Positions 3,014-40,867 of a DNA stretch of 64,000 nucleotides are shown piece by piece. The stretch spans positions 19,711 through 83,710 of the forward strand of contig CAZVWU010000005.1 in NCBI GenBank assembly GCA_964631205.1, given 5' to 3'. The notes beneath the pieces are model-generated. The model did no database searches. It was not told where the DNA came from and was given only the letters and a program-made list of their open reading frames with translations. The translations under genes and the position numbers were made by a program. Position 1 is the stretch's first letter; every line of letters begins with the position of its first letter. Source of the DNA: an uncultured archaeon. Its GTDB lineage: Archaea > Aenigmatarchaeota > Aenigmatarchaeia > QMZP01 > JACQNV01.

Positions 3014-3056
3014 AGCCCAAGTATATATTAGGGGTTGGAATTATATAATATACTAT

Positions 3057-8773: not shown

Positions 8774-8804
8774 ATTTTCATCACTTCTATTTATTTTGGG
8801 ATCT

Positions 8805-8827
8805 CAGCCCTTTTTCTAAAAGGGCTG
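8805..8827. terminator. Perfect 10-bp stem hairpin (CAGCCCTTTT-tct-AAAAGGGCTG) just after the stop of the 902-aa class III gene. Candidate intrinsic terminator or RNA stability element.
   Basis: Palindrome read directly. Followed on the plus strand by ATTTTTC. Related stem GCCCTTT/AAAGGGC occurs at 36268..36284. Confidence 0.4.
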
Positions 8828-8839
8828 ATTTTTCATATT

Positions 8840-11548
8840 TTATTCCAAACGTCCATAATCTCCGTAGAGCCAAGGCGAATATTTTTTGTGTGCTTTATCC
8901 AGTCCAGAGTCAACAGCTATAGAGCCGGCATAAGTAATCGGCACAGAATCGGTGAACTTGCAGGAAGTTGGTTTCTCCCTGTTAACCGGTTCTATTTTGC
9001 AATGTTGTTTGAATATTGGGACAGCGGTGCTGAAATCAAATTCGTCCTTCTCGAATAAGCCGGTCACTTTGAATGAAGGCACAAATGCATTGACATAGTA
9101 TTCGCTGTCTTCTTCCTTCACCTCAAAATCAAATCTCGTTATGCCCTTTATTAAAAAGTCGTGGGATAGTGTTTGGTACCTTCTGCATCCTTGGAAAGCA
9201 GAAAATTTCTTGCAGATTTTTTTCCTGTAAGTGACCTTTTTTGTTGTTGTGACTTCAGCAGTATATTCTTGGGGAGAGAGGTAGTCGATGACACTAGATG
9301 CTTGCGCTGTATGCTGTTTTTGAGGGGTTGTTACGGCTTCTTCGCCAGCCACATCCGCTGTTGCATTGGAAATAATAGCGGCTGTGAATATCGCTGATTC
9401 TCCTGGTTTTATAAATCCGTCCTGTGTTGCATTGGACCATAGAAGCCCGAGGATTTCGGTGTCAGCAGTTGCAGAAAAAATTGTGGATGTTATGGATGCT
9501 GTATTTGATTTGTCTACAAACTTGTGGTCTGACGCGTCTAACTGGAGTTCCACTCTTATTATATTTTGTTTTTCTGGATTGGCAACACGCAAGCTGATTA
9601 TATTCTTTGCTTCGCTTTCGCTCGCATTGATTGTTAACGGGAACTCAACAATATTGGAGGTTGCTGTGCCGTTTTTATAGGTTGTTATTAAATTGCCTTC
9701 AATTGTAGACTCCTGGTTCTGCCATAATGATAGGTCAATAGGCTCTATATCATCCAATAAAGTCTGCCCACCATTGGCCACCACAATTTCTATTTGGTTC
9801 CATGGCCTTTGGGTTTTGGGCTCGAAAGTAACTGATATCGAATCTGCTGTTTCCGGGGTTAGGTCTATTGCAAAAGGGAATTCCAATGTTTTCCTATCAT
9901 CGCTTGTCCTTGGTTGAAAACCGGGATTATATTCTTTATGCGCCGCCTCTGTGAATGGATATGGCGCGTTGACTACAGCTTTGTTGAAATTGAATATTAC
10001 AATGGGGTTTTTCTTTAATACAACATTCTTATTAAGGTCTGACATGCTTACAACATCAAAAAACTGGCCATACTGCGGATTGTAAACATTTAATTCGGAT
10101 ATCCCGCATGCAGAATGGGCTTCAACAATGCCTTCCTGGTCTGTCAACCCGAGAAGGCAGGGGCCTGCTGAGACTTTTGTGTCTGGTATTGGAGTTCCAC
10201 CAGAATCAGAGACGGAAATTTTAACCGGGCACTTCCTATCCCCGCAAGGGTCCTCTATCTCAGTAAAATTCCCTATGACATCGCAATTCCCTATTTCATT
10301 ATTATCTATATATGCCAGTGTCCCAAAATTTAACTCGAAATCGCCTGATTTCACAGTGGCCACTATCGGCATGTTTAAGCTGTATTCTATATCAAACCCG
10401 ACTAGGCAAAATGGTATCCATTGGTGGAGCGGTTTTGCGTTTGTTATCGAAACAGCATTTTGCGAAGGCTGGAAGTTTTTCTGGCTGACCTCAGAGCCCC
10501 TGTGGAATTTTATTTCCAGATCAGGATAAGTTTTGTTATTCAAGTCCGGGATATAATATTCAAGAAATTTCCTATCCTTGGGCGGCGGGTTAACAAGCCT
10601 TTCTGTATATTGTATGAGGTCTTCTCTCTGCTCCTCTGTTATATTTGCAAAGACTGCGTCTATCTCTTTCCTTTTCTCCTCTGGCACTGTTTCCAGCATC
10701 TCAGCAAACGTAAGCCTTTTTCCATCCCCAATAGGCGGCTGCTGCCAGAGCAAGATTTTGGATGCCGCAAAATCCACAATTTTTTCAGCTGCCTTCTCAA
10801 GGTCGTCCCTTGTCCTGAATATGGAATCTCCGCATTTCGACAGCATACCAAGCGTAGGGAAGAACCTTGGGTTTGTGTGGTACATCAAAGATGAAATAAA
10901 AATGTCGAGGTGCCTCTTTTTGGAATTGTCCTGGACAAAATCAGATGCAAAATCGTAGGCCCGTCGAAAAGACACGGGCACATTTATTTTATATGGCTGC
11001 ATGAGGTCAAAGCCTTCCAAGCTGGTTTTCATGTAGACATCTATCGCAATATCCTGGTCCCTGATCAGGACTTCGATATTTTCCCTTCTCGCTGGCTCTA
11101 TTTTTATTTCCTTGCCATAAGACTTTTTGATGGGGGAAAAATCAAAATCTTTTAGCCTATTCTCCAGGCCGAGCTTTATCTCCTCATTTATCCTGTCAAG
11201 GCTTGGTATAAACCTTTTCTGGCAGAGGCCCCAGTATGCGACTTTGCTCCCTGCAAAATTTATATTGTTGGGGGGGGCATTATAATATCCGCCCTGCCTG
11301 CCAATCCTGATGACCGTTTCTTCTGCCGCATTCTGGACAGCCCTTTCAATATCGCTCTTTACCAGCTTTTTCAGGTTTGCTATATTGGCGGGCTCAGGCT
11401 TGACGAGAGTCTGGCTTACAATTAAAGCGATTGTTATCGAGACGATTGCTATCGCGAGGATTATTATGATCTCTGTCTGCCCCTTCAGCCCTTTTCTTTC
11501 CCGAAATAAAAGGCCCGAACGCCCAAAAGAAAGGGGTTTAGTATACAT
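8840..11548 (-). CDS. Giant protein with an archaeal class III (type IV pilin-like) signal peptide
   Basis: N-terminus ...RKGLKGQTEIIIILAIAIVSITIALIV is a prepilin-type K/R-G cleavage site plus hydrophobic helix. 902 aa. Paralog of 21360..23444. Confidence 0.8.
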   Translation of the reverse strand: MYTKPLSFGRSGLLFRERKGLKGQTEIIIILAIAIVSITIALIVSQTLVKPEPANIANLKKLVKSDIERAVQNAAEETVIRIGRQGGYYNAPPNNINFAGSKVAYWGLCQKRFIPSLDRINEEIKLGLENRLKDFDFSPIKKSYGKEIKIEPARRENIEVLIRDQDIAIDVYMKTSLEGFDLMQPYKINVPVSFRRAYDFASDFVQDNSKKRHLDIFISSLMYHTNPRFFPTLGMLSKCGDSIFRTRDDLEKAAEKIVDFAASKILLWQQPPIGDGKRLTFAEMLETVPEEKRKEIDAVFANITEEQREDLIQYTERLVNPPPKDRKFLEYYIPDLNNKTYPDLEIKFHRGSEVSQKNFQPSQNAVSITNAKPLHQWIPFCLVGFDIEYSLNMPIVATVKSGDFELNFGTLAYIDNNEIGNCDVIGNFTEIEDPCGDRKCPVKISVSDSGGTPIPDTKVSAGPCLLGLTDQEGIVEAHSACGISELNVYNPQYGQFFDVVSMSDLNKNVVLKKNPIVIFNFNKAVVNAPYPFTEAAHKEYNPGFQPRTSDDRKTLEFPFAIDLTPETADSISVTFEPKTQRPWNQIEIVVANGGQTLLDDIEPIDLSLWQNQESTIEGNLITTYKNGTATSNIVEFPLTINASESEAKNIISLRVANPEKQNIIRVELQLDASDHKFVDKSNTASITSTIFSATADTEILGLLWSNATQDGFIKPGESAIFTAAIISNATADVAGEEAVTTPQKQHTAQASSVIDYLSPQEYTAEVTTTKKVTYRKKICKKFSAFQGCRRYQTLSHDFLIKGITRFDFEVKEEDSEYYVNAFVPSFKVTGLFEKDEFDFSTAVPIFKQHCKIEPVNREKPTSCKFTDSVPITYAGSIAVDSGLDKAHKKYSPWLYGDYGRLE

Positions 11549-11610
11549 ATATACTATAATTGAGCTAACCTGAATAAAAATAAAATATCAGAATTAAAGG
11601 GGCATCAAAA

Positions 11611-12969
11611 TCAGTATCTGCCTGCTCTTTCCCAATAATTATCATCAGCTTCTTCTTGGCTGCCCCTTCTTTTAAGCAGCATAAACAAAACAAGGGCCAC
11701 CAGGACTATCACAACTATTATAAGGACTGTCAGGTCGATCCCGCCTTCTGCTTTCTTGGATGTTTTTTGGGCAGGCTGGATTGTCTCCACACTCTCGGTT
11801 TTGTTGGCTGCCTTGTTTGCAAGGTCGCTGAAAGACCTGAGGTCTTCTGCCAAAGTTGAGTCTTTTGACCTTATTATTGCCTGGTTTATATCAGAAAGCG
11901 CTTTGGAGTCCAGTGCTTCTGTTGTTTTTAGCCTGTTTAAGTCGCAGGAAGCTTCGTTTACAGACAACGAACCCTGCAATGTTTTTGTTGCCTGGCCTTT
12001 TACTGATATTGTGAAGGTATACGAACATTCCGACCCTTCGGCCTCTAATTCTATAATTATATTTTCCCTGTTGGATATGGTTTTTGTTGTGGTGTTAAAG
12101 CCGGACTTTAAACCTCTTGGCAAGCTCAGTTCAACTGCATAATCTTTTTCTTCCCCATAGTTCCTTATCTCAAGGTAATATTTTACTGGCTGGCCTTTTT
12201 TTGTAGAGGCTGATTCAGGCATCAGGGTGGCTGAAAAATTGGCGGATGCGAGGGATTCCGGAGGATCCCGGACTGTTAAAAGTGTGGATGCTGTTTTTGT
12301 GCAGCCTGGGAGAGCGCAGCCCCTCACGACGGCTCTCACATTCAGGATGTTGTCTGTCTGGGTTCTTATCTTCTGGCTGACCACAATTTTTTCCTGGGGC
12401 CTTGTTGTGACAGATAAGGTTTTCCCTGTTTCCAGGATTTCAATGTCCATGTCTAGCCTTATGGTTGAATATATTTCTATCTGGTATTCGCCTTCTATGT
12501 TGGGCTCCAGATATGTCACGGGATCCATCCTTATATCGAAGTATTTCTGGTTCAGGCTCACCACAGCGCAGGGGTTCCCGCTTCCTGTGTCCTGGTCTTC
12601 CTGTTCAGCAACACAGATCCCATAATTGAATTCCTTCTGCTTTCCCCTTGCATCTGCTGTAAACTTAATGATTTTTGTCTGGTTTACAGCCTTTCCAAAG
12701 GTATTGAAGCAGATAGGTATGCTGACAGGGTTTCCAGGGTCAGTGAAGACCTCTGCGCTTGTAAAGTCGCACCATTCGCCGCAATCAGAGCTCAGGCTAA
12801 AAGTTGCAGGGACCCCAAACACGCCAACATCGTCAGGGATTTCAGCATTGATGCATTTCAGCGCCTCCGGCGCCATGGCAAAGTTCGTGCCGTCTTTCAG
12901 CGAGGCTTGAGCGGTTCCGGCAATAACAAGGAAACCTAAAATAAGCATTGCTCCTGTAAGGGATTTCAT
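11611..12969 (-). CDS. Secreted surface protein (signal peptide + C-terminal TM anchor). Paralog of 4845..6251.
   Basis: Start chosen at MKSLTGAMLILGFLVIAGTAQA (signal peptide), 30 nt downstream of the palindromic TATA at 13021. C-terminal TM LTVLIIVVIVLVALVLFMLL followed by KRRG. Confidence 0.7.
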   Translation of the reverse strand: MKSLTGAMLILGFLVIAGTAQASLKDGTNFAMAPEALKCINAEIPDDVGVFGVPATFSLSSDCGEWCDFTSAEVFTDPGNPVSIPICFNTFGKAVNQTKIIKFTADARGKQKEFNYGICVAEQEDQDTGSGNPCAVVSLNQKYFDIRMDPVTYLEPNIEGEYQIEIYSTIRLDMDIEILETGKTLSVTTRPQEKIVVSQKIRTQTDNILNVRAVVRGCALPGCTKTASTLLTVRDPPESLASANFSATLMPESASTKKGQPVKYYLEIRNYGEEKDYAVELSLPRGLKSGFNTTTKTISNRENIIIELEAEGSECSYTFTISVKGQATKTLQGSLSVNEASCDLNRLKTTEALDSKALSDINQAIIRSKDSTLAEDLRSFSDLANKAANKTESVETIQPAQKTSKKAEGGIDLTVLIIVVIVLVALVLFMLLKRRGSQEEADDNYWERAGRY

Positions 12970-13019
12970 AATATTATATTGTTCGACCCGCTTAAAAGAC
13001 AGAAATAGGGCCGCAAAAT

Positions 13020-13031
13020 GCTTTATAAAGC
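13020..13031. promoter_or_regulatory. Palindromic TATA box GCTTTATAAAGC. A likely bidirectional promoter, giving a leaderless transcript of 13054..14043 and a transcript of 11611..12969.
   Basis: Perfect 12-bp palindrome about 28 nt upstream of the GTG start. Identical boxes at 15087..15098 and 60379..60391. CTTATAAAG at 24766..24774. Confidence 0.55.
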
Positions 13032-13053
13032 CTGTTGCCATTCTTAAAATAAG

Positions 13054-14043
13054 GTGAATTTTATTAGCGGCTACCTAAGAGGTTTCATAGACGGGATTTA
13101 TAGTAGGGGCAGAAAAAATTTCAGGGACCTGCTAGCTTTTTCATTGGTTGGGGCTGTTTCTTTCGGATCAATGAAGGGGTATAAATCGTATACAGTGTAT
13201 ATTGAAAGGCGTGAAAAGGAGAGAGCGGCAATAGTAGAAGGGTTCGAGAGCCTTATTGAAGTTGACAGAGACTTAAAGGCAGATTATTCAGAAAAAATAG
13301 GCGCGGAAGCTGCAGAAAGGAAAAGGCTGGAGGCTCAACTCGTAGAGTTGAGAAAAAGATTGGAAAAAGGGATGGGGGATTATTCAACAGAATTAGAAAA
13401 AGACAGGAAAGAGAGGAAAGATTTTATGGCTGAGCTTAAAAAAATCCAGTTTCCCCCTTCCCAGATTCGTGTCGAGTCAACCATTTATCCCGGGCTGACT
13501 GGAAAGCCGTCAACAAAAGAAGAGCGTGCAAAAAAAGCGAGGATTTTGGTTGAGAGAATGAAAGATTCAGGATGCATGGTTAAAAAGAAAGAAATTATGG
13601 CAGAGAGACAAAGCATTGTGCTAGTTAAAAGCCTTGAGACTTCAAGGGGGCGAGCTGTTATTTACTCTATTGAGTGGATAGAAAAAGGAGGAAGAGGTTA
13701 TCAAGAATCTATGCTTGCTCTGGGACTTGATCCGAAAAAACCAATAGATAGTAATGAGATAGAAACCATGGCAAAGAAGTTTTTTGGTTTTTTGGATCAT
13801 TGGGGTGACTCCAGAAAGAGTCTTAGTTATAATGAATCGGCAATGAGGGATGCAGTTTATGAAACTTGCAGAGAAATCGTGATTGATTTTGAGCGCGATG
13901 GCGAACCAGATGGTTTCTTCAGAGACGGGATGAAAAGAGAGCTTGAAAAAGAAGTCGTGGGGATTTTCTACAACGGATTGCTTGATTCTTGCTTACAAGC
14001 CATCCCTGAAACACCCGATCAACCCGCGAACCCTAAAAGGTAG
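13054..14043 (+). CDS. Hypothetical protein, cassette family copy A (conserved N-terminus, variable C-terminal half)
   Basis: GTG start 28 nt after the TATA GCTTTATAAAGC. N-terminal ~90 aa and the last residues (PDQPANPKR) are shared with 15119..16087. The middle is unrelated. Coiled-coil-like region. Confidence 0.7.
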   Translation: MNFISGYLRGFIDGIYSRGRKNFRDLLAFSLVGAVSFGSMKGYKSYTVYIERREKERAAIVEGFESLIEVDRDLKADYSEKIGAEAAERKRLEAQLVELRKRLEKGMGDYSTELEKDRKERKDFMAELKKIQFPPSQIRVESTIYPGLTGKPSTKEERAKKARILVERMKDSGCMVKKKEIMAERQSIVLVKSLETSRGRAVIYSIEWIEKGGRGYQESMLALGLDPKKPIDSNEIETMAKKFFGFLDHWGDSRKSLSYNESAMRDAVYETCREIVIDFERDGEPDGFFRDGMKRELEKEVVGIFYNGLLDSCLQAIPETPDQPANPKR

Positions 14044-14274: not shown

Positions 14275-14766
14275 ATGATTCTCATCGACACTTCAGTATA
14301 TATAGCCGCTGAAGAAGATGGCTCTATTGAAAAATTGTTAGAGCAGATTTCAGAAAAGATGTTTATACATTCATGTGATGTTATAGAAAAGGAGATTAAT
14401 CTCGCCGCTGATTTTTTAAGAAGGACCGATAGAAAAATTGAATCAGAAAAATTAAAAGCCATCTATGAAAAAATAAAAGAAGGCAACATTAGAACAAGTG
14501 AAAGGATACTAAGGCTGTCTGAAGACTATCATTCTGAAGCTTCACAGCTCTCTAAAAAGGATCATAAAAAGATAAAAGCCGATTTTTTGATAGTGGCCTC
14601 TGCATCTGTAGCTGGGGTAAAAAAAATCCTGTCTTTTAACAGGAAAACAATGGCATCTGAACAGACCATAAAAGTATACAATATAGTAAATACCAGAAAT
14701 AATTGCAAAACACCTGCATTTTTGACAACAAAAGAAGAATTAAGAAAGCTCTTGGAGTCTCTTTAG
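14275..14766 (+). CDS. PIN-domain-like protein (VapC-like). No cognate antitoxin found.
   Basis: N-terminal MILIDTSVYIA and C-terminal DFLIVASASVAGVKKILSFNRKTM match the PIN acidic-residue layout. Longer (163 aa) than classic VapC. Confidence 0.5.
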   Translation: MILIDTSVYIAAEEDGSIEKLLEQISEKMFIHSCDVIEKEINLAADFLRRTDRKIESEKLKAIYEKIKEGNIRTSERILRLSEDYHSEASQLSKKDHKKIKADFLIVASASVAGVKKILSFNRKTMASEQTIKVYNIVNTRNNCKTPAFLTTKEELRKLLESL

Positions 14767-15118: not shown

Positions 15119-16087
15119 GTGGATTTTATCAGATACCTAAGCGGTTTGGTGGACGGGATTTATAACAGCAGGAAAACCAGGGACCTGCTCGCTTTTTCAT
15201 TAGTGGCGGCTTTGCCTTTCGCATCAATAAAGGGGTATAAAGCATACACAGGGTATATTGAAAGGCGTGAAAAGGAGAAAGCGGCAATAGTAAAGGGGTT
15301 CGAGGACTTTAGTGAAGCTGAGAAGGCCTTGCGCGCAGATTATTCAGGAAAAATAGGCGCGCTGGAGGCTGAACTCGGGGAGCTGAGAACAAAATTGGAA
15401 AAAATAGGGGACCTTGAAAAAGTCCAGTGGCCAAAGGCAGAGGCAGGACCCTTGCCTATTCCTAAAAAGAAAAAACTTTCACCAGAAGAGAAAAAAGAGG
15501 CCGCTGAGAGGAGGCAGGTTAAAGCCATCAGGCTTGCCAATTACATCAAAAGCACTGCCACTATAGTAAACCATAAAGGGCTTATTGAAATATATTTTGA
15601 AGGCTATGGAGACGAGAGGCGTAGCTTTAACATGATAGAATTCAATTTGCCACTTAAAACTCATCTCGGAAACTGCAATGCGTATTATCTGGAATTTAAT
15701 ACCGGAAATATTTTTGCTGATGACATAAGAAAGATGCTTGTTCTTGGGGTAAATTCAAGAGACCCCAACAAACAATGCTCTTTAGCTGATAGTCTTGCTT
15801 CCGATACTATCAGAGTTAACAATAGAGATGCATCAGATCCCAGAAACGGCAATATACGTGTATTTCTTGCCGCAAAGAGAAATTTTGAATATGTGATCGG
15901 TGAGCCGGCTAAGTACAGGATATTTGGTGATGCACAGGTAGCGTTTCATAGAGAGGCGGAATGGCTTTTCCCAAACGAAGATGAGATGAACCAAAAATAC
16001 GAAGAATTATTAGACATATTTACAATTGTGGCTTCTACCGCTGAACCTAGCTCTGAAACTCCCAATCAACCCGCGAACCCTAAGTAG
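15119..16087 (+). CDS. Hypothetical protein, cassette family copy B
   Basis: Shares the promoter, N-terminal ~90 aa and terminal ...NQPANPK with 13054..14043. The C-terminal half is different. Confidence 0.7.
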   Translation: MDFIRYLSGLVDGIYNSRKTRDLLAFSLVAALPFASIKGYKAYTGYIERREKEKAAIVKGFEDFSEAEKALRADYSGKIGALEAELGELRTKLEKIGDLEKVQWPKAEAGPLPIPKKKKLSPEEKKEAAERRQVKAIRLANYIKSTATIVNHKGLIEIYFEGYGDERRSFNMIEFNLPLKTHLGNCNAYYLEFNTGNIFADDIRKMLVLGVNSRDPNKQCSLADSLASDTIRVNNRDASDPRNGNIRVFLAAKRNFEYVIGEPAKYRIFGDAQVAFHREAEWLFPNEDEMNQKYEELLDIFTIVASTAEPSSETPNQPANPK

Positions 16088-16089: not shown

Positions 16090-19000
16090 TTATTTGGGCT
16101 TGCTTTTTGGAACAGCTATAACCGTGACCTCATTTGATTCAACATCTCCCTGAATGCCACCCATTTCGAGCTTTACTTTTATTTTGTAAGAGGTGCCGGC
16201 TGTTACTGATTCCCTTTCTACCAAAAGTTCAGCCCTGCCATTATTAATTATTGCTTTCTGTTTGGCGTCAGTATTATCAATTGCCAGCAATGCTTCAGCA
16301 TGTTCCTCACCATTTTCCACTTTTACTTTAAAAGAAAGTTTTGTACCATCAAAATTTTCATCAAACACTGTGATATGAGGCACCTTAATCTCCCTCTTTA
16401 CTTCTTTTATCTTTTCGTCCTCGAGGGTTGCCTCATTTTTAAAGTCCTCAAATGATTGGTCTGTGAAATGAAGGCGGAGCATATCTTTTATAGGTGTTGC
16501 TTGTTTTATAGTCAGATCACTGTTTTGCCTTAATTTTTCGTTTCCAGCTGCCTTTACATGGCCAGGGAAAAAGGTTATTATCATGTTATTCTGCAACTCA
16601 GCGAAGGTGTTAGAACTGGATTTTGAATTCAGATCATTTATGTTATCCTTTATTAGTTGTGCAGTTTTCTCCCTAATTAACTCAAATTCGTAATTAGTGG
16701 CATCATTTTTAAATTTTATTATCAGATTATCTGTGGGTTTGCCATCAGGCCCTTTTTCTTTTTGTATACTCACCACCCTAAACGGCAGGGAAGAGTAGAC
16801 CCCACTGTCAAACTTGCCTCTGGAAAGGCTGTCTTGCTTGAATTTTACGGTACCTGTTTTTTTGCCAATAAATTCGCCTACCGTTTTGGTATTTGGGTGG
16901 ACTGCTTCCTCAATGATTATGGAATCAATTATGTCTGAAATACTGGGGTCTGACAGCTTCAGATTTTTATTCTCAATTGCCAGCGGCCTTGCTCCAGTCT
17001 CTGAAAATGCTATCAAAACTCCTTCTTTGAGTTGTTCACGGTTTTTGATTGTTGCAGCATTTGGATGTTTTGTTGTGTCTGCGAAATACATCACATCGCC
17101 CGGACTCAGGTCAGCTATTTTAGTAGCGGATTTCAGGTTCCTGAAAACTGATTTTCCTATTTTTGTGGTATCAGATCTGGAGACATCAGCTTTACTGTAG
17201 CCGAAATCTACATCAAGCTCGATTTTTCTCTTCTCGGGATCCCCAGACTTTGGTATGCAGGTATATTTAACCACATACGTCCCCTGATCTAAATCAGGTA
17301 TCTTTGCTTCGGCGTCATCCGGCTTTAGCACGATTCTCTTTGACTTGCCTGTTGAGAAGGCTCCTCCAACATAGTCGGCTTTTTTCCCGTATTCCACCAA
17401 ACAGTTTTCAAGTTCAACAGCTTCACCCTGGATTTTTTTATTTGAGAGCATGACAATCGCCTCTTTCTGGTTAACCCTGTATTCGCATGTCCTTGTGAGC
17501 TCTGATTTTGTGCTGTCTACCCTTATTCCATGTATAGCCACGCCAAGTTCTTTTGACGGGACCAGCCATAGCTTCCCTTCCTCTGGGCATCCTTCAAGCG
17601 GCTGACCTATGTTGGCGGCAATATTCCTTCCGGGCAGCTGTGAGCAGTCCTGCCTGTAGGTGACCGTGAGGCTTTCACGCTGCGTCAGCTTGGGGCAGTC
17701 ATATTCAAACACATATTCGCCGTCTGCAGGGTCGCCTATGTTGAAGATCGCAGGCGCATTCTGGGGACTGCTTGGGCCTGCCGTGAGGCCTAACAGCTGC
17801 TTGAGGCTTCTCGGCTCTGCAGTTGCGTCCTTTATGCCTGTGAGGATAAGGGATGTCTTGGATTTTATTATATTTGTGTGCTGGGTAAGCTTGATGTCAG
17901 TTAGCGTGTCTTTACCTATTTCATCTTTTATTGATTTGGCCTCTACTTCTATCTGGGCTGCTGCATTTTTGACAGCTGCGCTTGCAGTTATTGTTTTGTC
18001 ATTCGGGTCTGCAAGCCTGCTGGCCTGGCTTTGGATTTCAAACGCCAGCGACTCTATCCCCTCAAGAGTCTTTTTCTTTTGATTTTGCAGGGCGTTTTTA
18101 TCGCCCAGGTAATCTGGTTTCTCCAGCTCCCTGTCTATCCTTCTCAATTCAACTGCGTAAGACGTCTCAAGGTTAGTGGCACGGACATCTATATTGTTGA
18201 CAGCTGTCCTCAGCGCGTCTGTGACCCCCGAAGCCTGCTTCCTGTATTTGATGTCCCAATTCCCGCCGCAGACGAAATTGTTGCCGTTCTCAAGCTCAAA
18301 TATCACCTGGTCCTGCCCGCATGCCTCATTTGTCCTCTCGAAGTTCTGGCCTGTCTGTGTGTTCTTTGCAGTCATTGAAAACCCGATCTTCCTGTACTGG
18401 TTTGCATAGTTTTGGAAGTCAGTTGTCCTCTGGTCAACATAATTATTCAGACCTTGGAGTGTATTTGATGCAGCCCCAAGATACTGGTTGTTGCAGGATG
18501 TAAATTGCGCAACGCAGTTCAGCGCGGCCTGCCCTGCCTGCTGGGGGTTCTCAGGGTCTGCCCCATTGCAGAGGCCGTCGCCGATATTGTGGATGTTAAT
18601 GTCCATGCACAGCATGAAAGACTGTATTTCCGTGAGCGCTTTCGCCATCTGCGTGTGGATGCTCATCATGGTCTCAGCAACTTTGCAGACAGCAAGGCCT
18701 GCAGTTGTCAGCTGCCCAATCCCCTGCAGGAAAGCCCCTATCGCAGTAAAAGCAGTATTCTGCCCCTTGTCATTGGCCTGGTTGGCGGCATTGTTGATTA
18801 TTGTGATCGGATTCCCCCTTGCTTCCGGGTTTTTCGGGTCGCCTATCCCAGTCACAGTTCCAGGGGTAAGGCCAGAAATTACTTGTGGATGAAATGCTGA
18901 TTGTGGCAGTTTCGTGGCCCTTAAGTTTGCTTTATTTGGATCTATCCTAACAAGATCGTCTGCGTATTGGTTTTGTTCACCGTCAACAGATAATATGTGA

Positions 19001-21345
19001 CCCTCAAGCAGGCCATCGTAGGTAGTTCCTGTTTTTACAAAACTAATAGATTTACCATCAATGCTCCCAGCATAACCAGTTGCACTAAAAATAGTTCCGC
19101 CTGGATATAATGCTGGAGGTGGAATAGCTTGAATGCCTTCTATATCACTTCCTTTTACTGTTTTTATCTGCCCATTCCTTAAAACTCTAAAAGTGTTCTC
19201 ACCTGCTTTACTATTAGTGCCAACTTTGTCTATAAGCGTGGCCGGACCGCCAGACTCAAAAATCCCTTCATCAACTGTAACCTTTGTTCCAGGCGGCGGC
19301 GGATTATTTTCATCGAAGTTCCCAGCCGAACCAGGAAGATTCTCGTCATTTTGAGTCCATTCATACCAGCTCTTTACCCCGCCTGCAACGCTGCTGACAA
19401 TATCCGGGACGAAATCCTTTACCAGACCTACAATTGCCAGCCCTCCCACAATCAGAGACATCGTCGCCATTATCTTGGCATAGGTGACTGAGGTTTTGAC
19501 TATCTCGACGCATTCCTTGAGGATGTCTTTGGCATCGCCGACGCCAGCTTTGAGGTCGCTGAAGATGTCTCGGATTTCTTTTTCAGAAGTTTTTATTATT
19601 TCGTTCAGGCTTTTGACTGTCTGGGAGACTGAGATGTCCTGCAGGGTTGATTTTAGCTCGACTGATTTTTGGTTAGAGAGCCTGGCTTTTGCAAAAAGGA
19701 CGTTGTTCCTGATTGTGAAGTCGCCTTGCCTGCAGTCCTTAAACTTTTCCAGCTTGAACTCGCACTCTGTCCTTCCACCCGGAGCAGGCTTGCAGCCTGT
19801 GAGCGGTATGATTTTGTGGCCGAATGGTTTTCTCTCTTTTGGCCTTTTGAGCTTGGCGTCTTCAACAGCTTTCCTGCAGGCTTCCCTTGATTTTTCGTCT
19901 GACCTTATTTTGCTGCAGGTTTTTGTTTCCTGGGTCAGCAAAGCAACCTGCTGGAAACAGCTGTCCTTTATTTTGGCGTCGCTTATCCTATCGCATAAGG
20001 TGTGGTCCTGCAGGGACAGGGCTCCATTCGCAAAGCAGGCGTCCCTGTCTGGCTTGGCGCCTTTATCGCAGGTTGTTATGACATCGCTCCTTGTTGCCAA
20101 CGATTCAGTGTCCCTGTCCAGCTCAACCCAAACTTCATCAACCTGAGTCCCTGTTGGCACGCTTATAAGTTCATAAGTAAGCTTTGTCGGGTGCCTCCTT
20201 TCGCATGAAGTAAATTCAGTCTCTTCAAACCTCCCTACTATCCCTGTTTTTGTTTTGTCTATGCACAGGCCCGGGTCATTTTTGTTGTTCGCGTCAAAAC
20301 TGCATACCAGGTTAGGCTCACCACAACCGTCTGAAAAATCACGGCAGCAGTTCTCCCTTGTCTCGCCTGCATCCAGGTCAGGGACCCCATTCCCGCAATC
20401 AAGCTTTGGCTTTGGCGCAATTGTAAAAGGGTTCCCTATAAGATTGACTGTTGACGGGAAAACCAGCCCATACTCCTTTAAAATCTTTTCTGTGTCGACG
20501 AATCCTTCCCTATCTGTTTTCCTGACATCAAATTTTTCAGGCGTGTCTGCCTGGTCAATCCCGGATATATGGAGGCTTGCAATCTGCGAATTCGGGTCCT
20601 GGTTGATTTTGTTTGGTATTACCCTTGAAACCCAGCCTTTTGGGATGACATTTTTATTTTTTATAAAGTCTGCAGTCAGGTTGAGGAGCTTTGAATCAGA
20701 CAAGACCACATCCACACTGTCCAATTCATTATCCTGCAATATTTCCCAGTCGCTCTGGGAATTCCCTATACCATGCCTTTTTATGACGTCCCAATATCCA
20801 AACCACTGCCTTTTGCCTGCTATTTCCAATGTGGCGAATGTCAGCAGCCTTGCTTCCTGCTGGCCGAAATTAAGGGTGCCAACATCTTTTGCATTCGATA
20901 TGTCAAGCCAGTTTGCCTGGTAGTCAACAAAGGTCGAGAATTTAATTGCAGACTTCTTGTTTGCCTGGACTGACCGGATGCAGTCTGTTGGGTCCTGCAG
21001 CTTGAATTTTTCATCTATGCAGGGGATTATGTAAACATCATTTATCAGGACGCTTGGCTGGGAATTTATTTTAATCCCGATTGAAGTGAACTCCGGCTCC
21101 CATTGCCCTTGGACAGGGCTTTTGTCTTCAACTTTTATCTGCTTATTGACCAAGCTCGAAGGCGCTCCCAAGGAAACTGGAGTCGGCGGCTGCAACCTTG
21201 TTGATCCATCTGGCGCAAAGAAATTCACCTGGATTACTGTTGCAAAAGACTGGGCAGTTGAGAGCGGCAAGGTCAGCATCAAATAGATAGAGAAGACTAC
21301 AGCTGACAAAAATGCATTTTGCTTGCTAAAGATTTTTGCTTTCAT
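16090..21345 (-). CDS. Giant secreted/membrane protein (about 1750 aa) with internal hydrophobic segments and Cys-rich modules
   Basis: Start chosen at MKAKIFSKQNAFLSAVVFSIYLMLTLPLSTAQS (signal peptide). The track start at 21372 is also possible. CGNGVPDLDAGETRENCC Cys-rich motif and an internal TM-like stretch IMATMSLIVGGLAIVGLV. Convergent with 15119..16087 (3-nt gap). Confidence 0.8.
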   Translation of the reverse strand: MKAKIFSKQNAFLSAVVFSIYLMLTLPLSTAQSFATVIQVNFFAPDGSTRLQPPTPVSLGAPSSLVNKQIKVEDKSPVQGQWEPEFTSIGIKINSQPSVLINDVYIIPCIDEKFKLQDPTDCIRSVQANKKSAIKFSTFVDYQANWLDISNAKDVGTLNFGQQEARLLTFATLEIAGKRQWFGYWDVIKRHGIGNSQSDWEILQDNELDSVDVVLSDSKLLNLTADFIKNKNVIPKGWVSRVIPNKINQDPNSQIASLHISGIDQADTPEKFDVRKTDREGFVDTEKILKEYGLVFPSTVNLIGNPFTIAPKPKLDCGNGVPDLDAGETRENCCRDFSDGCGEPNLVCSFDANNKNDPGLCIDKTKTGIVGRFEETEFTSCERRHPTKLTYELISVPTGTQVDEVWVELDRDTESLATRSDVITTCDKGAKPDRDACFANGALSLQDHTLCDRISDAKIKDSCFQQVALLTQETKTCSKIRSDEKSREACRKAVEDAKLKRPKERKPFGHKIIPLTGCKPAPGGRTECEFKLEKFKDCRQGDFTIRNNVLFAKARLSNQKSVELKSTLQDISVSQTVKSLNEIIKTSEKEIRDIFSDLKAGVGDAKDILKECVEIVKTSVTYAKIMATMSLIVGGLAIVGLVKDFVPDIVSSVAGGVKSWYEWTQNDENLPGSAGNFDENNPPPPGTKVTVDEGIFESGGPATLIDKVGTNSKAGENTFRVLRNGQIKTVKGSDIEGIQAIPPPALYPGGTIFSATGYAGSIDGKSISFVKTGTTYDGLLEGHILSVDGEQNQYADDLVRIDPNKANLRATKLPQSAFHPQVISGLTPGTVTGIGDPKNPEARGNPITIINNAANQANDKGQNTAFTAIGAFLQGIGQLTTAGLAVCKVAETMMSIHTQMAKALTEIQSFMLCMDINIHNIGDGLCNGADPENPQQAGQAALNCVAQFTSCNNQYLGAASNTLQGLNNYVDQRTTDFQNYANQYRKIGFSMTAKNTQTGQNFERTNEACGQDQVIFELENGNNFVCGGNWDIKYRKQASGVTDALRTAVNNIDVRATNLETSYAVELRRIDRELEKPDYLGDKNALQNQKKKTLEGIESLAFEIQSQASRLADPNDKTITASAAVKNAAAQIEVEAKSIKDEIGKDTLTDIKLTQHTNIIKSKTSLILTGIKDATAEPRSLKQLLGLTAGPSSPQNAPAIFNIGDPADGEYVFEYDCPKLTQRESLTVTYRQDCSQLPGRNIAANIGQPLEGCPEEGKLWLVPSKELGVAIHGIRVDSTKSELTRTCEYRVNQKEAIVMLSNKKIQGEAVELENCLVEYGKKADYVGGAFSTGKSKRIVLKPDDAEAKIPDLDQGTYVVKYTCIPKSGDPEKRKIELDVDFGYSKADVSRSDTTKIGKSVFRNLKSATKIADLSPGDVMYFADTTKHPNAATIKNREQLKEGVLIAFSETGARPLAIENKNLKLSDPSISDIIDSIIIEEAVHPNTKTVGEFIGKKTGTVKFKQDSLSRGKFDSGVYSSLPFRVVSIQKEKGPDGKPTDNLIIKFKNDATNYEFELIREKTAQLIKDNINDLNSKSSSNTFAELQNNMIITFFPGHVKAAGNEKLRQNSDLTIKQATPIKDMLRLHFTDQSFEDFKNEATLEDEKIKEVKREIKVPHITVFDENFDGTKLSFKVKVENGEEHAEALLAIDNTDAKQKAIINNGRAELLVERESVTAGTSYKIKVKLEMGGIQGDVESNEVTVIAVPKSKPK

Positions 21346-21359
21346 ATGTTGGTTTATTC

Positions 21360-23444
21360 CTAAACAACACAACTTTTTATGGTAGTTGAATTGACTGGCA
21401 CGAAACTAAGCGGCAGCGAGACCCCCACCTGGTTGCCGCACTCGACAGTGACATTGATCAATTTAAGCCTTATTTGGGCTGAGGCAACCACGTTTTCTTC
21501 GATGACCCGCTGGTTTTCTGTGTCAGCTGCTTTTTGGTTTTTGACCTCAACAGGATCGTCTGGATCTACAGGGTTTGGCAGGGGCTTGTAAGGATAGCCT
21601 TCTGTCAAAACAGGGTTGTAGAACCACAGGTCTGTTGTCCCCTCTGGTATTTTCCCGGCAGCATCAAAGCCGCCGAGTATAGAATCTCCTTTTTGGACGA
21701 CTGTTGTTAAAGCGACATCCTCGAGGGTTGGGATTAAATTTGTAGTAAGCTCTTGGTCGCTTGTCTTCACAAAGAACGGCGCTGTTTCTCCGCCATATCC
21801 TATTGACAGTGTAAAGCTCTCTGAATTTGGCCTGACATCAGCAACAGTATAAACCCCTGCCCTTTCCACCATTTCCATGTTGAAGATATGGATTTTAACC
21901 AGGCTTAATCTTGCGAGCCTTATTGTTTTATCCTTGACTGAATCTGAGCTGGAAACCTCCTTGAACAGCTTGTGGTCTTTCTCAGTTATCTCCAGCTGGC
22001 TGATCCCGCAAGGGACAAGCGCTTCCAGGACGCCTTCGCTGTCTGTTTTCCCAAGCGGGCAATAAGAGTAGAAAACGTCCGCATCTGCCACAGCCCCTGC
22101 AGCATCCACGGCAGTTATTTTTGCAGGGCACCTTCCGACTGTGCACCTTTTGACTTCTTCATCAAAGAACCCTAACGTCAGGCCCAAGTCCTTCCAGTCA
22201 CCTGGCTTATACCCGTTCACAAATGTATGGAATGCAAATTTGAGTTTTAGATCTTCATCCCCAACTTCTGCCACAACAGGGAACAGCAAGAAGTATGAAA
22301 TCCTATAAGGTGGCGAGACGCAAAGGGTTGTATACCCAAAGTTTTCTGTCCTTATAATGACACGCCCTGGATCTTCGCCATTGTTCTGGAAAACCTGGAA
22401 GGACTTTTCGTCCAGCTCGTTTCCCAAAGAAAATTTCACATCAAGGTTTGTAAATACCGGCAATACTCCAGGCAGATAAGATGTCCTGTTAGTTATGCCC
22501 TTTGGGACCTTGCCAGCAGTATAGATGTTGTCGAGAGTGCCGGCTATCAGATCCTCGACATCAGGCTTTAGGCTGAACCAAGTCTTTACAATAGGAGGTG
22601 TCCCGCAACCTGTAAGGATCCCCTCGCTGGGTATTTTTGGCCTGCCAAATTCATCTGATTCTCGGTAGGCGCGTATTGAGTTTATTATAAACCTCTCAAA
22701 CAACCTGTTCTCTTCAACCCCGCTAACCCTATTCACAGGCTCGCCATCTTCATCGTAACCTGTGATCTGCAGCTCTTTTTTCTGGCTCTTCTCTATAAGC
22801 TCATTCCCAAAATTTATTGCCTTTCCAAGGCTCGAAGGGATTTTTACTTCTATAGGCTTGCCAAAGTCATAGCCCTCCACAGACACTGGCAGATCGATTT
22901 TTAACTGGACATCATTATCATTGATTTTAACTTCTACGCTCCGCGGGCTCCCTATCGAAACATCTTTTCCCTTTACACTTTGGTAGGACTTTGGGTCTAT
23001 TCCCTTTAAAGATTCTTTTAACCCGGCTGAAAGGGTTGCCTCAAAATCCGCCCTTGTCCTAGTTATGGTAGTGTTCCCGTACTGCCAGAATACAACTTTA
23101 TTTCCCAGATAATCAAGCGCGGGGGGCTTTGGATCAGAGTCGAGATCGAGATAGCCGCCGTTTTGGGCGATTTTCCTTATCAGCTGTGTTGCATCAGAAG
23201 AGATTCTTCGCTGGATGTCAGAGTTTAAGGAATTTTTCAGCGCAGAAACAGACTCAGGCTCTGGAGGCAGCAAGCTTATTGTTTTGGTTGCAAAGAGAAC
23301 CCCCACAACAGCAACAACCACTATACCTAATACAATTATAATTTCTGCCTGGCCTTTCAGCCCTTTTCTTCCCGAAGAAAAGTGTTGAGATCCCAAAAGA
23401 AGGGGGTTACCTATGCTGTTTTGTTTATTATTCCGGCCTTTCAT
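21360..23444 (-). CDS. Giant protein with a class III (pilin-like) signal peptide. Paralog of 8840..11548.
   Basis: ...GRKGLKGQAEIIIVLGIVVVAVVGVLF. N-terminal ~80 aa align with the 902-aa protein. Start chosen at MKGRNNKQ. The track start at 23480 is 36 nt further upstream and also possible. Confidence 0.75.
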   Translation of the reverse strand: MKGRNNKQNSIGNPLLLGSQHFSSGRKGLKGQAEIIIVLGIVVVAVVGVLFATKTISLLPPEPESVSALKNSLNSDIQRRISSDATQLIRKIAQNGGYLDLDSDPKPPALDYLGNKVVFWQYGNTTITRTRADFEATLSAGLKESLKGIDPKSYQSVKGKDVSIGSPRSVEVKINDNDVQLKIDLPVSVEGYDFGKPIEVKIPSSLGKAINFGNELIEKSQKKELQITGYDEDGEPVNRVSGVEENRLFERFIINSIRAYRESDEFGRPKIPSEGILTGCGTPPIVKTWFSLKPDVEDLIAGTLDNIYTAGKVPKGITNRTSYLPGVLPVFTNLDVKFSLGNELDEKSFQVFQNNGEDPGRVIIRTENFGYTTLCVSPPYRISYFLLFPVVAEVGDEDLKLKFAFHTFVNGYKPGDWKDLGLTLGFFDEEVKRCTVGRCPAKITAVDAAGAVADADVFYSYCPLGKTDSEGVLEALVPCGISQLEITEKDHKLFKEVSSSDSVKDKTIRLARLSLVKIHIFNMEMVERAGVYTVADVRPNSESFTLSIGYGGETAPFFVKTSDQELTTNLIPTLEDVALTTVVQKGDSILGGFDAAGKIPEGTTDLWFYNPVLTEGYPYKPLPNPVDPDDPVEVKNQKAADTENQRVIEENVVASAQIRLKLINVTVECGNQVGVSLPLSFVPVNSTTIKSCVV

Positions 23445-23484
23445 ATTCCTTGAGCTAGAAAAGAAAGAATTATTTTGCATATTT

Positions 23485-23631: not shown

Positions 23632-24117
23632 CTATTTCTCATAGACAATAAAAACAATATCAATGTCTTGCCCTCTTTTGGAGATTTTCTGGTTCACTTT
23701 ATATATGCCAGTCTTGTTTTCCAGGGCCTTGCTGAGTGGCGTGACAGTGTCTCCATATTTAAAGTAGTAGTCCAACTTCGGATCAAGTGTTTTTTGTATA
23801 TAGACATCAGTCAGCGCATCCGCTATCTCCTCGCACCTTGCATCACCGCATCTCCAGCTCGGGGTTGTCTGCGAGCAATAAAGGACATCGGCCACAGTCT
23901 TGCATTTTTCTATATCCCCTGAATAACCGCTGTCTGTCTTTAGAAGCGCTGTCACCAAGCTGTTTGCATGCAGTTTTATGTAGTCTTCCCCCCTAAAAAT
24001 GTCAGCAGTAGAGATAAGCAAAGCAATAGTGCCTATGCTTACCACAATAACCAGAACCAGAGTTATCAGCATTGTCTGCCCGTTCAGGCCTTTTCTGTTT
24101 GAAATTTCCGTTTTCAT
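23632..24117 (-). CDS. Small pilin-like protein with a class III signal peptide
   Basis: MKTEISNRKGLNGQTMLITLVLVIVVSIGTIALLI. 161 aa. Confidence 0.7.
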   Translation of the reverse strand: MKTEISNRKGLNGQTMLITLVLVIVVSIGTIALLISTADIFRGEDYIKLHANSLVTALLKTDSGYSGDIEKCKTVADVLYCSQTTPSWRCGDARCEEIADALTDVYIQKTLDPKLDYYFKYGDTVTPLSKALENKTGIYKVNQKISKRGQDIDIVFIVYEK

Positions 24118-24135: not shown

Positions 24136-24714
24136 TTAGGTTGGCACCCTGACTGTCATGAGGCCGAGATCGACCCTGTTTTCTATCGATCGGAATATAT
24201 TAACAGGTATTGATAAACCCCTGTTTTTTTTAGACTGTATGCTAAAGCAGATTTCTCTGCAGAATGTCCAGCTATTGCATCCTTTTTCCTGGCCAAAATT
24301 CAGCGGATCGCAATCGTTCTTTTCTTCGCCTAAAATAATTTTGTCAATTGTTACACATGCATCGCCGACAAGTTTTTTTATTTGCTCGCAGCCCTCCTTG
24401 TCATAAGGGCCTGTAAATGTGACTAGCTTTGAATCATCGAATATAAATTCCTCCTTTGTGAGAAAGCTTGCTTTGGCTACAAGGCTCGATGCTAACAGGA
24501 TTTTATGAATGTCCTCCTTGAAACTGGCTCCCTTGGATTTTGTTGACTCAAAACCAATAAAAAAGAAAAGCGCTGCTACAACAACCATCAGTATAAGGAC
24601 GGCCATCAGGAGATGCTCCATTATGCCGAACTGGCCCTTCAATTTTGAGGGAGGGGTGGGAACCGCAGGTTTCCACATGCCGAATTGTCCGCTTATTTTT
24701 TTTAAAAAAACCAT
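24136..24714 (-). CDS. Pilin-like protein with a class III-type signal
   Basis: ...PSKLKGQFGIMEHLLMAVLILMVVVAALFFFIGF. Internal N-terminal duplication KISGQFGMWKP / KLKGQFGIMEH. The start is uncertain. Confidence 0.6.
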   Translation of the reverse strand: MVFLKKISGQFGMWKPAVPTPPSKLKGQFGIMEHLLMAVLILMVVVAALFFFIGFESTKSKGASFKEDIHKILLASSLVAKASFLTKEEFIFDDSKLVTFTGPYDKEGCEQIKKLVGDACVTIDKIILGEEKNDCDPLNFGQEKGCNSWTFCREICFSIQSKKNRGLSIPVNIFRSIENRVDLGLMTVRVPT

Positions 24715-28688: not shown

Positions 28689-28736
28689 CACTGGTCTCCT
28701 ATAGGGGCTTTACTTCCACATAGCCGCCTTTGTTTG

Positions 28737-28770
28737 CACTTCTTTTCTGAAGAAAAGACCTGCACTAGAA
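28737..28770. repeat. Intergenic element copy B (inverted orientation), flanked by 31-bp direct repeats at 28704..28736 and 28772..28802
   Basis: GCACTTCTTTTCTGAAGAAAAGACCTGCACTAGAA. Central palindrome CTTTTC-TGAA-GAAAAG. Contains the stop (CTA) of 28765..29244. Flanking repeat GGCTTTACTTCCACATAGCCGCCTTTGTTTG occurs twice. Confidence 0.7.
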
Positions 28771-29359: not shown

Positions 29360-29406
29360 TTCTAGTGCAGGTCTTTTTGACCAATTGAACAGGGAAAGAA
29401 GTGCTA
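29360..29406. repeat. Intergenic element copy C
   Basis: TTCTAGTGCAGGTCTTTTTGACC...GGGAAAGAAGTGCTA. The stop codon of 29404..29970 lies in the terminal GTGCTA. Extra AAGTGCAA half-sites lie just upstream (29325-29350). Confidence 0.65.
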
Positions 29407-34362: not shown

Positions 34363-34477
34363 AAAAAGTCTATTGGCTCTCCCACTCCGAATTTAATAAT
34401 AGTTATAAGTTTTATAAACTGATTGGTAAGCAGGGCAAGTTTTATAAAGCTATCCTGCTTTTCGGTATTTTGGTTTT

Positions 34478-40841: not shown

Positions 40842-40867
40842 TCAATCTGTGTAAAATCTGTTTCGGC

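Follow-up and report, generated by a model that had tools for sequence, protein, structure and literature searches.

A giant Sec-exported protein encoded at the end of a pilin-like gene cassette in an uncultured archaeon: a candidate partner of a pilus-like surface apparatus

The PilY1/PilC proteins are recognized by a C-terminal beta-propeller, the Neisseria_PilC-type domain of Pfam, and by a gene within a minor-pilin operon, on whose pilins their display depends. Two sources describe PilY1 as an adhesin presented with minor pilins, and report large adhesin-like proteins beside the pilins of archaeal type-IV-filament loci, among them the DUF2341-type "PilY-like" proteins and the Ig-rich arCOG05616 (PMC4858521; 10.64898/2026.04.22.720090). 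Here we describe gene G, located in a 64,000-nucleotide stretch of DNA (the window, numbered from its first letter) from an uncultured archaeon of the Aenigmatarchaeota (contig CAZVWU010000005.1, positions 19,711 to 83,710), which encodes a giant exported protein at the end of a conserved series of pilin-like genes. With moderate confidence, we consider G a non-pilin, adhesin-type partner of a pilin-like surface apparatus, functionally analogous to PilY1/PilC. As far as the literature was searched, both the G family and the cassette that contains it appear to be undescribed. Term searches of the two sources cited above returned no Aenigmatarchaeota, no such cassette and no central disulfide-bracketed hydrophobic helix, and in a genome study of Aenigmarchaeota nothing beyond archaellum homologues, and pili in the thermal lineages, is mentioned (PMC8407114).

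A preliminary description of the same DNA had seen in G a candidate membrane-inserting effector, reminiscent of pore-forming or contact-dependent proteins. In the class I fusion loops of Ebola GP2 and of the TM subunit of avian sarcoma/leukosis virus, a disulfide-bracketed hydrophobic segment is combined with long helices and a Cys chain-reversal region; in class I viral fusion glycoproteins the part before the fusion loop is glycosylated and the helical part is glycan-poor. The colicin pore domain and ClyA/YaxAB, in turn, hold a hydrophobic helical hairpin among amphipathic helices. As for the way in which DPANN-type archaea attach to other cells, recognize them and exchange material with them, cryo-tomography shows bridges, tubes and invasion, for which only a small number of gene products is known (PMC11329633; PMC11291902).

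Gene G and the pilin-like cassette

Gene G lies on the minus strand (open reading frame 16090-21372, first ATG at 21345, coding sequence 16090-21345) and encodes a Sec-exported, non-pilin product of 1751 residues (aa); the large secreted protein first described is therefore one residue longer than the 1750 then counted. Its signal peptide, MKAKIFSKQNAFLSAVVFSIYLMLTLPLSTAQS (21247-21345, minus strand, residues 1-33), is of the Sec type, with a K-rich n-region, a hydrophobic core and the ending ..STA↓QS (the arrow marks the site, here and below). The family shares conserved N-termini ending in SA↓T (consensus ..SYL.L.LP..SA↓T), and G carries no class-III [KR]G↓ site. Secretion, as originally proposed, is thus borne out.

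The strongest evidence about the role of G is its fixed last place in a pilin-like cassette, which speaks for a structural part, of the adhesin type, in a pilus-like surface apparatus. The collinear cassette A-B-C-D-E-F-G(-H) occurs in the window and again in each of the eight related loci examined (L001, L002, L003 and L005-L009), and its order is retained where G is just 28-30% identical to the target over the N-domain. Two of these loci, L001 and L002, are close orthologous loci (G 51% and 49% identical, respectively), and the other six belong to distant members; at each cassette position, homology to the window genes was established by BLAST where this was run (L003, L005 and L006), and L007, L008 and L009 were assigned by shared order and gene sizes. 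Across loci, A has about 190 aa, B about 160, C about 360, D about 170, E about 160 and F 590-716 aa. Each of the eight loci also has an orthologue of F as the gene immediately upstream of G. In the window the stop codon of F precedes the ATG of G by 14 nt, and the two genes are adjacent or overlapping in the other loci. Gene H, usually the next after G, encodes a protein with a signal peptide and a C-terminal transmembrane helix.

Across loci, A, D, E and F share a conserved site of the type [KR]-[GA]↓Q and, directly behind it, a hydrophobic stretch of 20-25 residues, and conserved hydrophobic segments occur at the N-terminus of B and C; class-III-like sites are accordingly present in four of the six genes. 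All window copies are on the minus strand. The large pilin-like gene that had been noted just before G is gene F (21360-23480, 706 aa), prepilin-like, with RKGLKG↓QAEIIIVLGIVVVAVVGVLFA (RKGLKG↓QAE) and a hydrophobic helix. Upstream of it come E (23632-24117, 161 aa, prepilin-like, NG↓QTMLITLVLVIVV), D (24136-24714, 192 aa, prepilin-like, KLKG↓QFGIMEH...), C (27588-28691, 367 aa, with the conserved N-terminal hydrophobic segment FEAFKIILGLI..), B (28765-29244, 159 aa, with a hydrophobic segment at its start) and A (29404-29970, 188 aa, prepilin-like, MAQKKG↓INIGIEFVIII..).

The window cassette is split by insertions into A-B-C (29970-27588), D-E-F-G (24714-16090) and H-F'-G'-H' (13041-4845). 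Thioredoxin-NHL, SOD and peroxiredoxin genes separate the first two parts; two unknown genes and a PIN gene lie between G and H. The third part constitutes a second distal module (4845-13041, minus strand), in which the distal half of the cassette is repeated in strongly diverged form, with H (11611-13041, 476 aa, signal peptide and C-terminal transmembrane helix), F' (8840-11548, 902 aa, prepilin-like), G' (6248-8773, 841 aa, a G-like N-domain and 3-4 strong transmembrane helices) and H' (4845-6251, 468 aa), all on the minus strand. F' is 26% identical to F (E=6e-39), and G' aligns with G over the N-domain only (E=1e-3). F' and G' are still adjacent both in the window and in L003, where the order H-F'-G'-H' follows G. 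To judge from these sequences, the second copy in the window is old. Next to the module, gene I (2898-4841, plus strand, 647 aa) encodes a protein with a C-terminal transmembrane helix and an acidic tail, and its homologue adjoins the cassette in L005.

Architecture of the G family and its central hydrophobic helix

An exhaustive HMMER scan with G residues 1-1200 returned 309 proteins at E<=1e-3. Among the best 150 of these, at least 67 are true relatives of G, most of them of 1100-2500 aa, and they keep one domain order: signal peptide, N-domain, one to three Cys modules, one to four beta-sandwiches, a long helix, the hydrophobic helix, a linker, and helices with a C..YQH..D.G.C.G.E.SC motif. 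The target itself has the Sec peptide and the ordered domains, and stands directly downstream of an F-type prepilin-like gene. One relative, at locus L005, is annotated [quoted passage not shown]; a homologue among DPANN archaea, for which the preliminary description had proposed to look, does exist. The remaining ~80 of the best 150 matches align solely to the Cys repeat at G residues 411-500.

All parts of G are encoded on the minus strand. The beta-rich N-domain, which includes the first Cys module (20116-21243, residues 35-410), defines the family, relatives matching over residues 10-415, and is weakly similar to that of the paralogue G'. The Cys-rich module, CG.G..(x)..GE...CC.D..C (20203-20397, residues 317-381), contains the CGNG..GE..C motif that had been pointed out earlier, CGNGVPDLDAGETRENCC (residues 317-334). 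Its family consensus is CGxGxCExxLGETxxxCCxDCGC, with C317, G318, G327, E328, C333, D336, C341, C361 and C381 nearly invariant; relatives have one to three copies, the additional ones being found in a larger subfamily. A helical Cys repeat follows (C..I.d...kd.C; 19846-20115, residues 411-500), which is absent from Pfam, modelled with a low predicted local distance difference test score (pLDDT) and partly missing in the closest orthologues. Proteins matching this repeat, in units of ~26-28 aa, number about 80 among those best 150 matches; they are otherwise unrelated, have 130-900 aa, are in many cases N-terminally anchored and contain no Pfam domain. From its sequence, the repeat looks like an undescribed repeat family. 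Beyond it, a beta-sandwich domain (19624-19815, residues 511-574), detected by repeated jackhmmer matches and by AlphaFold2 strands at pLDDT ~80, is present once in the target and one to four times across relatives.

The center of the protein is formed by an amphipathic helix (19495-19608, residues 580-617), which holds the near-invariant C612 and runs into the uncharged hydrophobic helix TSVTYAKIMATMSLIVGGLAIVGLV (19420-19494, residues 618-642). The best 19-mer of the latter, residues 624-642, reaches a Kyte-Doolittle (KD) value of 2.02. This is the strongly hydrophobic helix that had been recognized about 640 aa into the protein (IMATMSLIVGGLAIVGLV, residues 625-642), and it is kept across the family: 38 of the 39 members examined have an equivalent uncharged stretch in the same place, with a median of 24 residues. 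Dozens of relatives have both the helix and the Cys module in matching relative positions, so that these features are more than chance. At the position homologous to the helix, the paralogue G' has its 3-4 strong transmembrane helices, which favors a membrane-embedded role.

Behind the helix comes a hypervariable insert, Cys-free, sequon-free and predicted disordered (18766-19419, residues 643-860, pLDDT <30), and then an uncharged return helix, AFTAIGAFLQGIGQLTTAGLAVC (18685-18753, residues 865-887), ending in the invariant C887. The latter corresponds to a second hydrophobic stretch of the preliminary description. It is indeed devoid of charged residues, but with a KD of only 1.33 and a summed Hessa score of +5.4 it is not a stand-alone transmembrane helix. 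Across relatives the return helix is more polar in most cases (median KD 0.84), and a classical hairpin of two transmembrane helices was rejected on this basis as a family-wide solution. Two long sequon-free helices follow (18400-18684, residues 888-982) with C913-x12-C926 and C944-x6-C951, which make up the family motif C..YQH..D.G.C.G.E.SC......C, with invariant C913 and C951 and nearly invariant G924, C926 and C944. A four-helix bundle (17824-18228, residues 1040-1174) precedes a lineage-specific C-terminal region (16093-17778, residues 1190-1751), in which homology to relatives stops near residue 1300 and no internal repeats were found; residues 1200-1751 had no Pfam or PDB sequence match. 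By eye, we noticed neither a lipobox nor a C-terminal transmembrane helix in G, whose end, ..VTVIAVPKSKPK, is not hydrophobic. In relatives, Big_5, Big_7, PKD, CARDB, LNR and LRR domains are all C-terminal to the hydrophobic helix.

An AlphaFold2 model of residues 1-1200, built on a 36-sequence alignment (mean pLDDT 64.9), is confident and mostly made of strands over residues 35-410 (pLDDT 80-92). Residues 580-638 form a single continuous helix, with confidence falling off into its hydrophobic part; residues 631-865 are disordered, and residues 853-922 and 934-982 form long helices (pLDDT 50-86). The four-helix bundle is predicted at pLDDT 85-95 both here and in an earlier, otherwise poor model from a 7-sequence alignment.

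Neither G (whole protein and sub-regions) nor gene F matched any family in Pfam, NCBIfam, PHROGs or PADLOC, the Pfam scan of G having been carried to E<=0.1 for the whole protein and to E<=1 for nine sub-regions; the other cassette partners gave weak matches only, all below cut-off. PDB sequence and profile searches with G were empty. Foldseek of the G model against PDB and BFVD yielded just generic tandem beta-sandwiches (for the N-domain, integrin legs, mastigoneme and RbmA on top) and, for residues 1040-1174, generic four-helix bundles. Viral contig scans contained no relative of G, and a word-indexed protein search returned only the query with the whole protein and with a 21-sequence profile, and nothing with the N-terminal 420 residues. 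As far as it can be tested with these resources, the protein is without a known fold, as the preliminary description had held for its C-terminal region. At the same time, the outcome named there as speaking against an effector, an N-terminal signal with no internal transmembrane helix and adhesin-like beta-sandwiches throughout, was not obtained, as the internal hydrophobic helix exists.

The distribution of Cys residues bears on the topology. From the signal peptide to the Cys just before the helix, their number (12-44) is even in 33 of 34 members; after the helix (9-54), it is odd in 29 of 34. The corresponding binomial probabilities, which ignore relatedness, are ~2e-9 and ~2e-5. If all Cys are paired, the simplest reading of this parity is that one disulfide spans the helix, and C612 would most likely be bonded to the invariant C887. 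In most members the conserved Cys stands 27-38 residues beyond the helix, a spacing that fits a turn and a return helix of equal length.

The distribution of N-x-S/T sequons changes abruptly at the same point. The target has a single sequon, compared with 13.9 expected by shuffling (Poisson P ~1e-5), while the other secreted proteins of the window have 117 (102.6 expected) and its cytoplasmic proteins 9 (24.4 expected). In 35 members, 255 sequons lie before the helix compared with 330 expected (ratio 0.77), and 27 after it compared with 186 (ratio 0.15); six control motifs are normal in the post-helix part (0.77-1.10 of expectation). In bins of 100 residues, the last one before the helix reaches 1.73 times expectation and the first one after it 0.00 (0 versus 24.8); the ratio is then 0.06-0.12 for the next 300 residues (8 of ~86) and 0.3-0.6 over four further bins, up to +800, beyond which the few longer proteins hold no sequons. 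A similar depletion (0.08-0.19) marks the N-terminal ~200 residues of the exported N-domain. After the helix, the depletion goes beyond what is seen in cytoplasmic proteins, where the ratio is 0.37 for the window and 0.64 for other loci. Such a motif-specific depletion below the cytoplasmic level looks like selection against glycosylation, and would hence imply that the region is exposed on the outer face of the membrane and has to remain glycan-free. Some secreted products of the window are sequon-rich: a 663-aa protein (36322-38313) has 27 compared with 12.5 expected, a 768-aa protein (38535-40841) 12 compared with 4.5, and the product of gene I 10 compared with 4.7.

On the grounds of the Cys parity, the sequon pattern and the extracellular-type domains C-terminal to the helix in relatives, we infer that both arms of G lie outside the cell and that the hydrophobic helix stands within a disulfide-closed hairpin.

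The insert behind the helix is of a different nature. In the clade of the target, 200-370 residues are inserted there, compared with 10-60 in most other members. The orthologues of L001 and L002 are 87% identical over ~594 residues up to the helix, and yet their inserts show no detectable similarity (local-alignment z ~1); the target insert has none to that of L001 (z ~0.4) and at most a marginal one to that of L002 (z ~2). The inserts are without sequons, and all but one without Cys.

Proposed anchoring and function of G

If G is the adhesin-type partner of a pilus-like apparatus, it would be exported by Sec with its N- and C-terminal arms both outside, and the hydrophobic and return helices would form a hairpin shut by the C612-C887 disulfide. 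This hairpin would be the only candidate attachment element, because of the non-hydrophobic C-terminus and because neither a C-terminal transmembrane helix nor a lipobox was seen by eye. It could be seated in the cell's own membrane, as a re-entrant or hairpin anchor, or be packed among pilin helices at the base or tip of a filament. The arms would serve as an adhesin, as PilY1/PilC does with the minor pilins of bacterial type IV pili, and the sequon-free zones (the first ~200 residues and ~400 after the helix) would be glycan-free surfaces, most simply buried assembly interfaces.

Several observations weigh against this proposal. In the 64-kb window, and up to 10 kb from G in the six loci for which genes had been called, no gene for a type IV pilus ATPase, a platform protein or a prepilin peptidase was found, although such machinery may be encoded elsewhere. 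The link to a pilus machine therefore rests on the pilin-like N-termini and the gene order; among A-F there is no match to a Pfam or NCBIfam pilin family. Foldseek found no fold similarity to PilY1 or to a structurally known adhesin. The passage of a 24-residue hydrophobic helix through Sec would call for an explanation, the return helix in most relatives (median KD 0.84) is too polar to span a bilayer, and AlphaFold2 is poor (pLDDT 25-56) exactly at the hairpin, where the mechanism is decided. In addition, the sequon argument presumes N-glycosylation in these organisms, which is suggested by the sequon-rich neighbors, and, since the family members are related to one another, neither the parity counts nor the sequon counts can be taken as independent.

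The polarity of the return helix in most relatives would make a stable membrane hairpin difficult, and agrees with another proposal, close to that of the preliminary description and unlikely in our estimation: the shielded, disulfide-closed hairpin would enter the membrane of a contacted cell, like a fusion loop or an alpha-helical pore former, being presented by the pilin-like cassette, with the hypervariable insert tuning specificity. A disulfide-bracketed hydrophobic helix in an otherwise extracellular protein is what one would expect of such a device, as are the long helices next to it, whose lack of sequons (0 of 24.8, after 1.73 times expectation in the preceding 100 residues) resembles glycan-poor refolding subunits; the non-homologous cassette behind the helix in orthologues 87% identical up to it, the presence of the family in an Aenigmatarchaeota genome, and the cytoplasmic bridges and invasion reported between DPANN and hosts (PMC11329633; PMC11291902) point in the same direction. 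However, no sequence or fold similarity to a pore former, fusogen or toxin was detected, the hydrophobicity of the helix is that of an ordinary transmembrane segment rather than of a fusion peptide, the corresponding part of G' is an ordinary polytopic membrane domain, and the conserved disulfides would limit large refolding. Membrane insertion stays a minority reading by virtue of the apparent disulfide bracket and the glycan-free helical module. Its fullest form, a group-specific pilus-like apparatus in which the hairpin and the glycan-free helices of G insert into the membrane of another cell and a swappable insert sets the target, is a speculation of small probability. The hairpin could instead remain with the filament. 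An internal helix held beside the prepilins, extracted and packed into the filament core, would place G on the fiber as a pilin-mimicking tip or base subunit; this is a special case of the adhesin-type partner, with another anchoring site, and rather doubtful as such. The strict collinearity with four prepilin-like genes and the tight F-G coupling speak for it, as do the sequon-free zones, which fit surfaces buried in assembly, and the helix itself, 24 residues long, rich in small residues and Gly-rich at its end, like the alpha1-N segments of pilins. On the other hand, inspection by eye found no prepilin cleavage site, and so no class III motif, ahead of the internal helix, its orientation relative to the exported N-arm would be opposite to that in a pilin, no machinery genes are linked to the cassette, and we know of no precedent for a pilin-like helix that is not N-terminal.

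A simpler topology would make G a type I membrane protein, with the N-terminal ~585 residues outside, a single pass at residues 618-642 and the remaining ~1100 residues in the cytoplasm. Only one helix is clearly of transmembrane grade, the following one being unlike a transmembrane segment; the sequons drop abruptly after it; and its C-flank is less acidic than its N-flank (net charge +0.08 versus -1.0, Wilcoxon p=0.015). All the same, we judged this N-out/C-in arrangement improbable: according to the Cys parity, a disulfide bridges the helix and the Cys of the C-part are paired throughout; the sequon depletion (0.15) lies well below the cytoplasmic 0.37 and 0.64, is motif-specific and occurs also in the exported first ~200 residues; and the C-part of relatives contains Big, PKD, CARDB and LNR domains. 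Finally, G might be an ordinary beta-sandwich adhesin or S-layer-like protein unrelated to pili, with the hydrophobic stretches as buried core helices and the gene order incidental. Its beta-rich N-domain, the generic tandem beta-sandwich proteins heading the Foldseek matches and the many further large surface proteins encoded nearby would agree with this. It is nevertheless highly improbable, as a 24-residue uncharged stretch in 38 of 39 members is atypical of a soluble core helix, and the cassette order is kept both at 28-30% identity of the G N-domain and in a diverged paralogous pair.

Genomic surroundings, and comparison with described systems

Other genes interrupt or flank the cassette. 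Toxin-antitoxin-like modules are inserted in it in L001 (5957-6649), L002 (3740-4156, 4636-5459 and 7817-9996) and L006 (5090-5691), at differing places in different orthologous loci, the order being otherwise kept; they are AbrB/PIN-like, HEPN/nucleotidyltransferase-like and MazE-like, names given mostly from sequence reading. Between G and H, the window carries two paralogous genes of ~325 aa (13054-14043 and 15119-16087, plus strand) that flank the PIN gene (14275-14766), have no family match and share near-identical N-termini (..F[IS].YL.G.[IV]DGIY...RDLLAFSLV.A..F.S.KGYK.YT.YIERREKE.AAIV.GFE); L003 has an unrelated 476-aa gene there. In L003 only, a 447-aa P-loop-like protein (6621-7964, ..LVESLSGVGKSTV..), with no precomputed Pfam hit, lies between E and F and is the sole NTPase-like gene seen inside any cassette copy. 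The L006 contig, otherwise archaeal-looking (RadB-like, A-G), encodes a 510-aa product with Pfam matches to Sigma70 regions 2 and 4 (16875-18407); it could have been transferred horizontally or belong to a virus, or the assembly could be chimeric. In the window (1597-2343), L005 (20113-20748) and L007 (13995-14678), a gene for a short ERCC4-HhH (XPF-type) nuclease is found at a distance of a few kb from the cassette, which suggests a wider conserved synteny among these lineages.

The density of surface proteins around the window cassette is unusually high. A run of large secreted or anchored proteins flanks it (30241-43852, minus strand), of 1373 aa (Big_7, PKD), 663 aa, 768 aa (LamG) and 994 aa (LamG, CARDB), broken up by a DEAD-box helicase gene (34533-36197). 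Besides the short XPF/ERCC4-HhH nuclease, the window encodes a RadB-like protein, Taw1, RNase P p30, diphthamide synthase and ArsA/Get3, genes which mark it as archaeal, and a scan of its 64 kb with Rfam gave no family, tRNA and rRNA included, at gathering score.

Beyond the case of G, this work provides a gene set, A-I, which came back in each related locus looked at, that of an Aenigmatarchaeota genome included, and is duplicated in the window, and a large uncharacterized protein family that lacks a Pfam model. It also offers three testable signatures: the apparently disulfide-closed hydrophobic helix, the sequon switch at that helix, and the non-homologous cassette in near-identical orthologues. 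For the attachment of these archaea to surfaces or to other cells, G is a good candidate. Read conservatively, it would give the biology of archaeal type-IV filaments a non-pilin partner of a new kind; were the insertion proposal true, it would be a molecular candidate for the way in which ultrasmall archaea breach or bridge host envelopes.

How G stands in relation to described families can now be stated. It was not assigned to the PilY1, pilin, toxin or fusogen families, whose defining features were not detected on testing. Type IV pilins have a short charged leader that ends in [KR]-[GA] and is cleaved before a hydrophobic helix of about 20 residues; G has instead a Sec peptide with a ..SA↓T-type site, and the class-III motif is found in the neighbors A, D, E and F. 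No recognizable toxin or pore domain was detected in G (Pfam, NCBIfam, PADLOC, PDB, Foldseek), and whereas a polymorphic toxin has its toxin part at the C-terminus and an immunity gene next to it, the 3' neighbor gene of G is on the opposite strand. Fusexins/HAP2 are known by a class II beta fold of three domains, and class I fusogens by a trimeric helical core with a C-terminal transmembrane anchor; for G there was no Foldseek match (PDB, BFVD) and no C-terminal transmembrane helix, the hairpin model being of low confidence. Of the effector first proposed, the secreted, very large protein and the internal hydrophobic helix are confirmed, but neither by family nor by fold was a match to a toxin, a pore former or a fusogen obtained, and the identification as a pore-forming or contact-dependent effector found no support; the more general idea of a membrane-inserting effector is neither shown nor excluded.

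Like the alpha-helical pore formers, G is an exported protein with a hydrophobic helix flanked by long amphipathic helices; unlike G, they are without conserved disulfides and very large adhesin-type arms, and Foldseek against PDB gave no match of the G model to an alpha-helical pore-forming toxin at E<1e-3. To class I fusion loops it can be likened by layout and sequon pattern, with no homology or fold match detected; it differs from the class I proteins by a full 24-residue helix of transmembrane grade, by the lack of a C-terminal transmembrane anchor and by its cellular context. Archaeal type-IV-filament (TFF) loci, as catalogued in the sources cited above, are defined by an ATPase and a platform gene of the FlaJ/TadC type together with pilins; neither of the first two was found near the G cassette, in the window or up to 10 kb from G in the six loci mentioned, and the G locus was not counted as such a locus. 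The proteins of those archaeal loci, which have been proposed as adhesins or minor pilins, resemble G in being large, with a signal peptide, Ig-like or Cys-rich, with conserved Cys expected in disulfides, and encoded beside pilin genes, although G has neither DUF2341 nor any other Pfam domain. As for PilY1/PilC, no Pfam family and no Foldseek match to the model of residues 1-1200 indicates a beta-propeller in G. The two share no sequence or fold similarity (Pfam, Foldseek), PilY1 has no internal hydrophobic helix, and G is archaeal and without adjacent machinery genes. Nevertheless, both are non-pilin proteins of more than 1000 aa with a Sec peptide, encoded together with minor-pilin-like genes, in the case of PilY1/PilC in the fimU-pilVWXY1Y2E operon.

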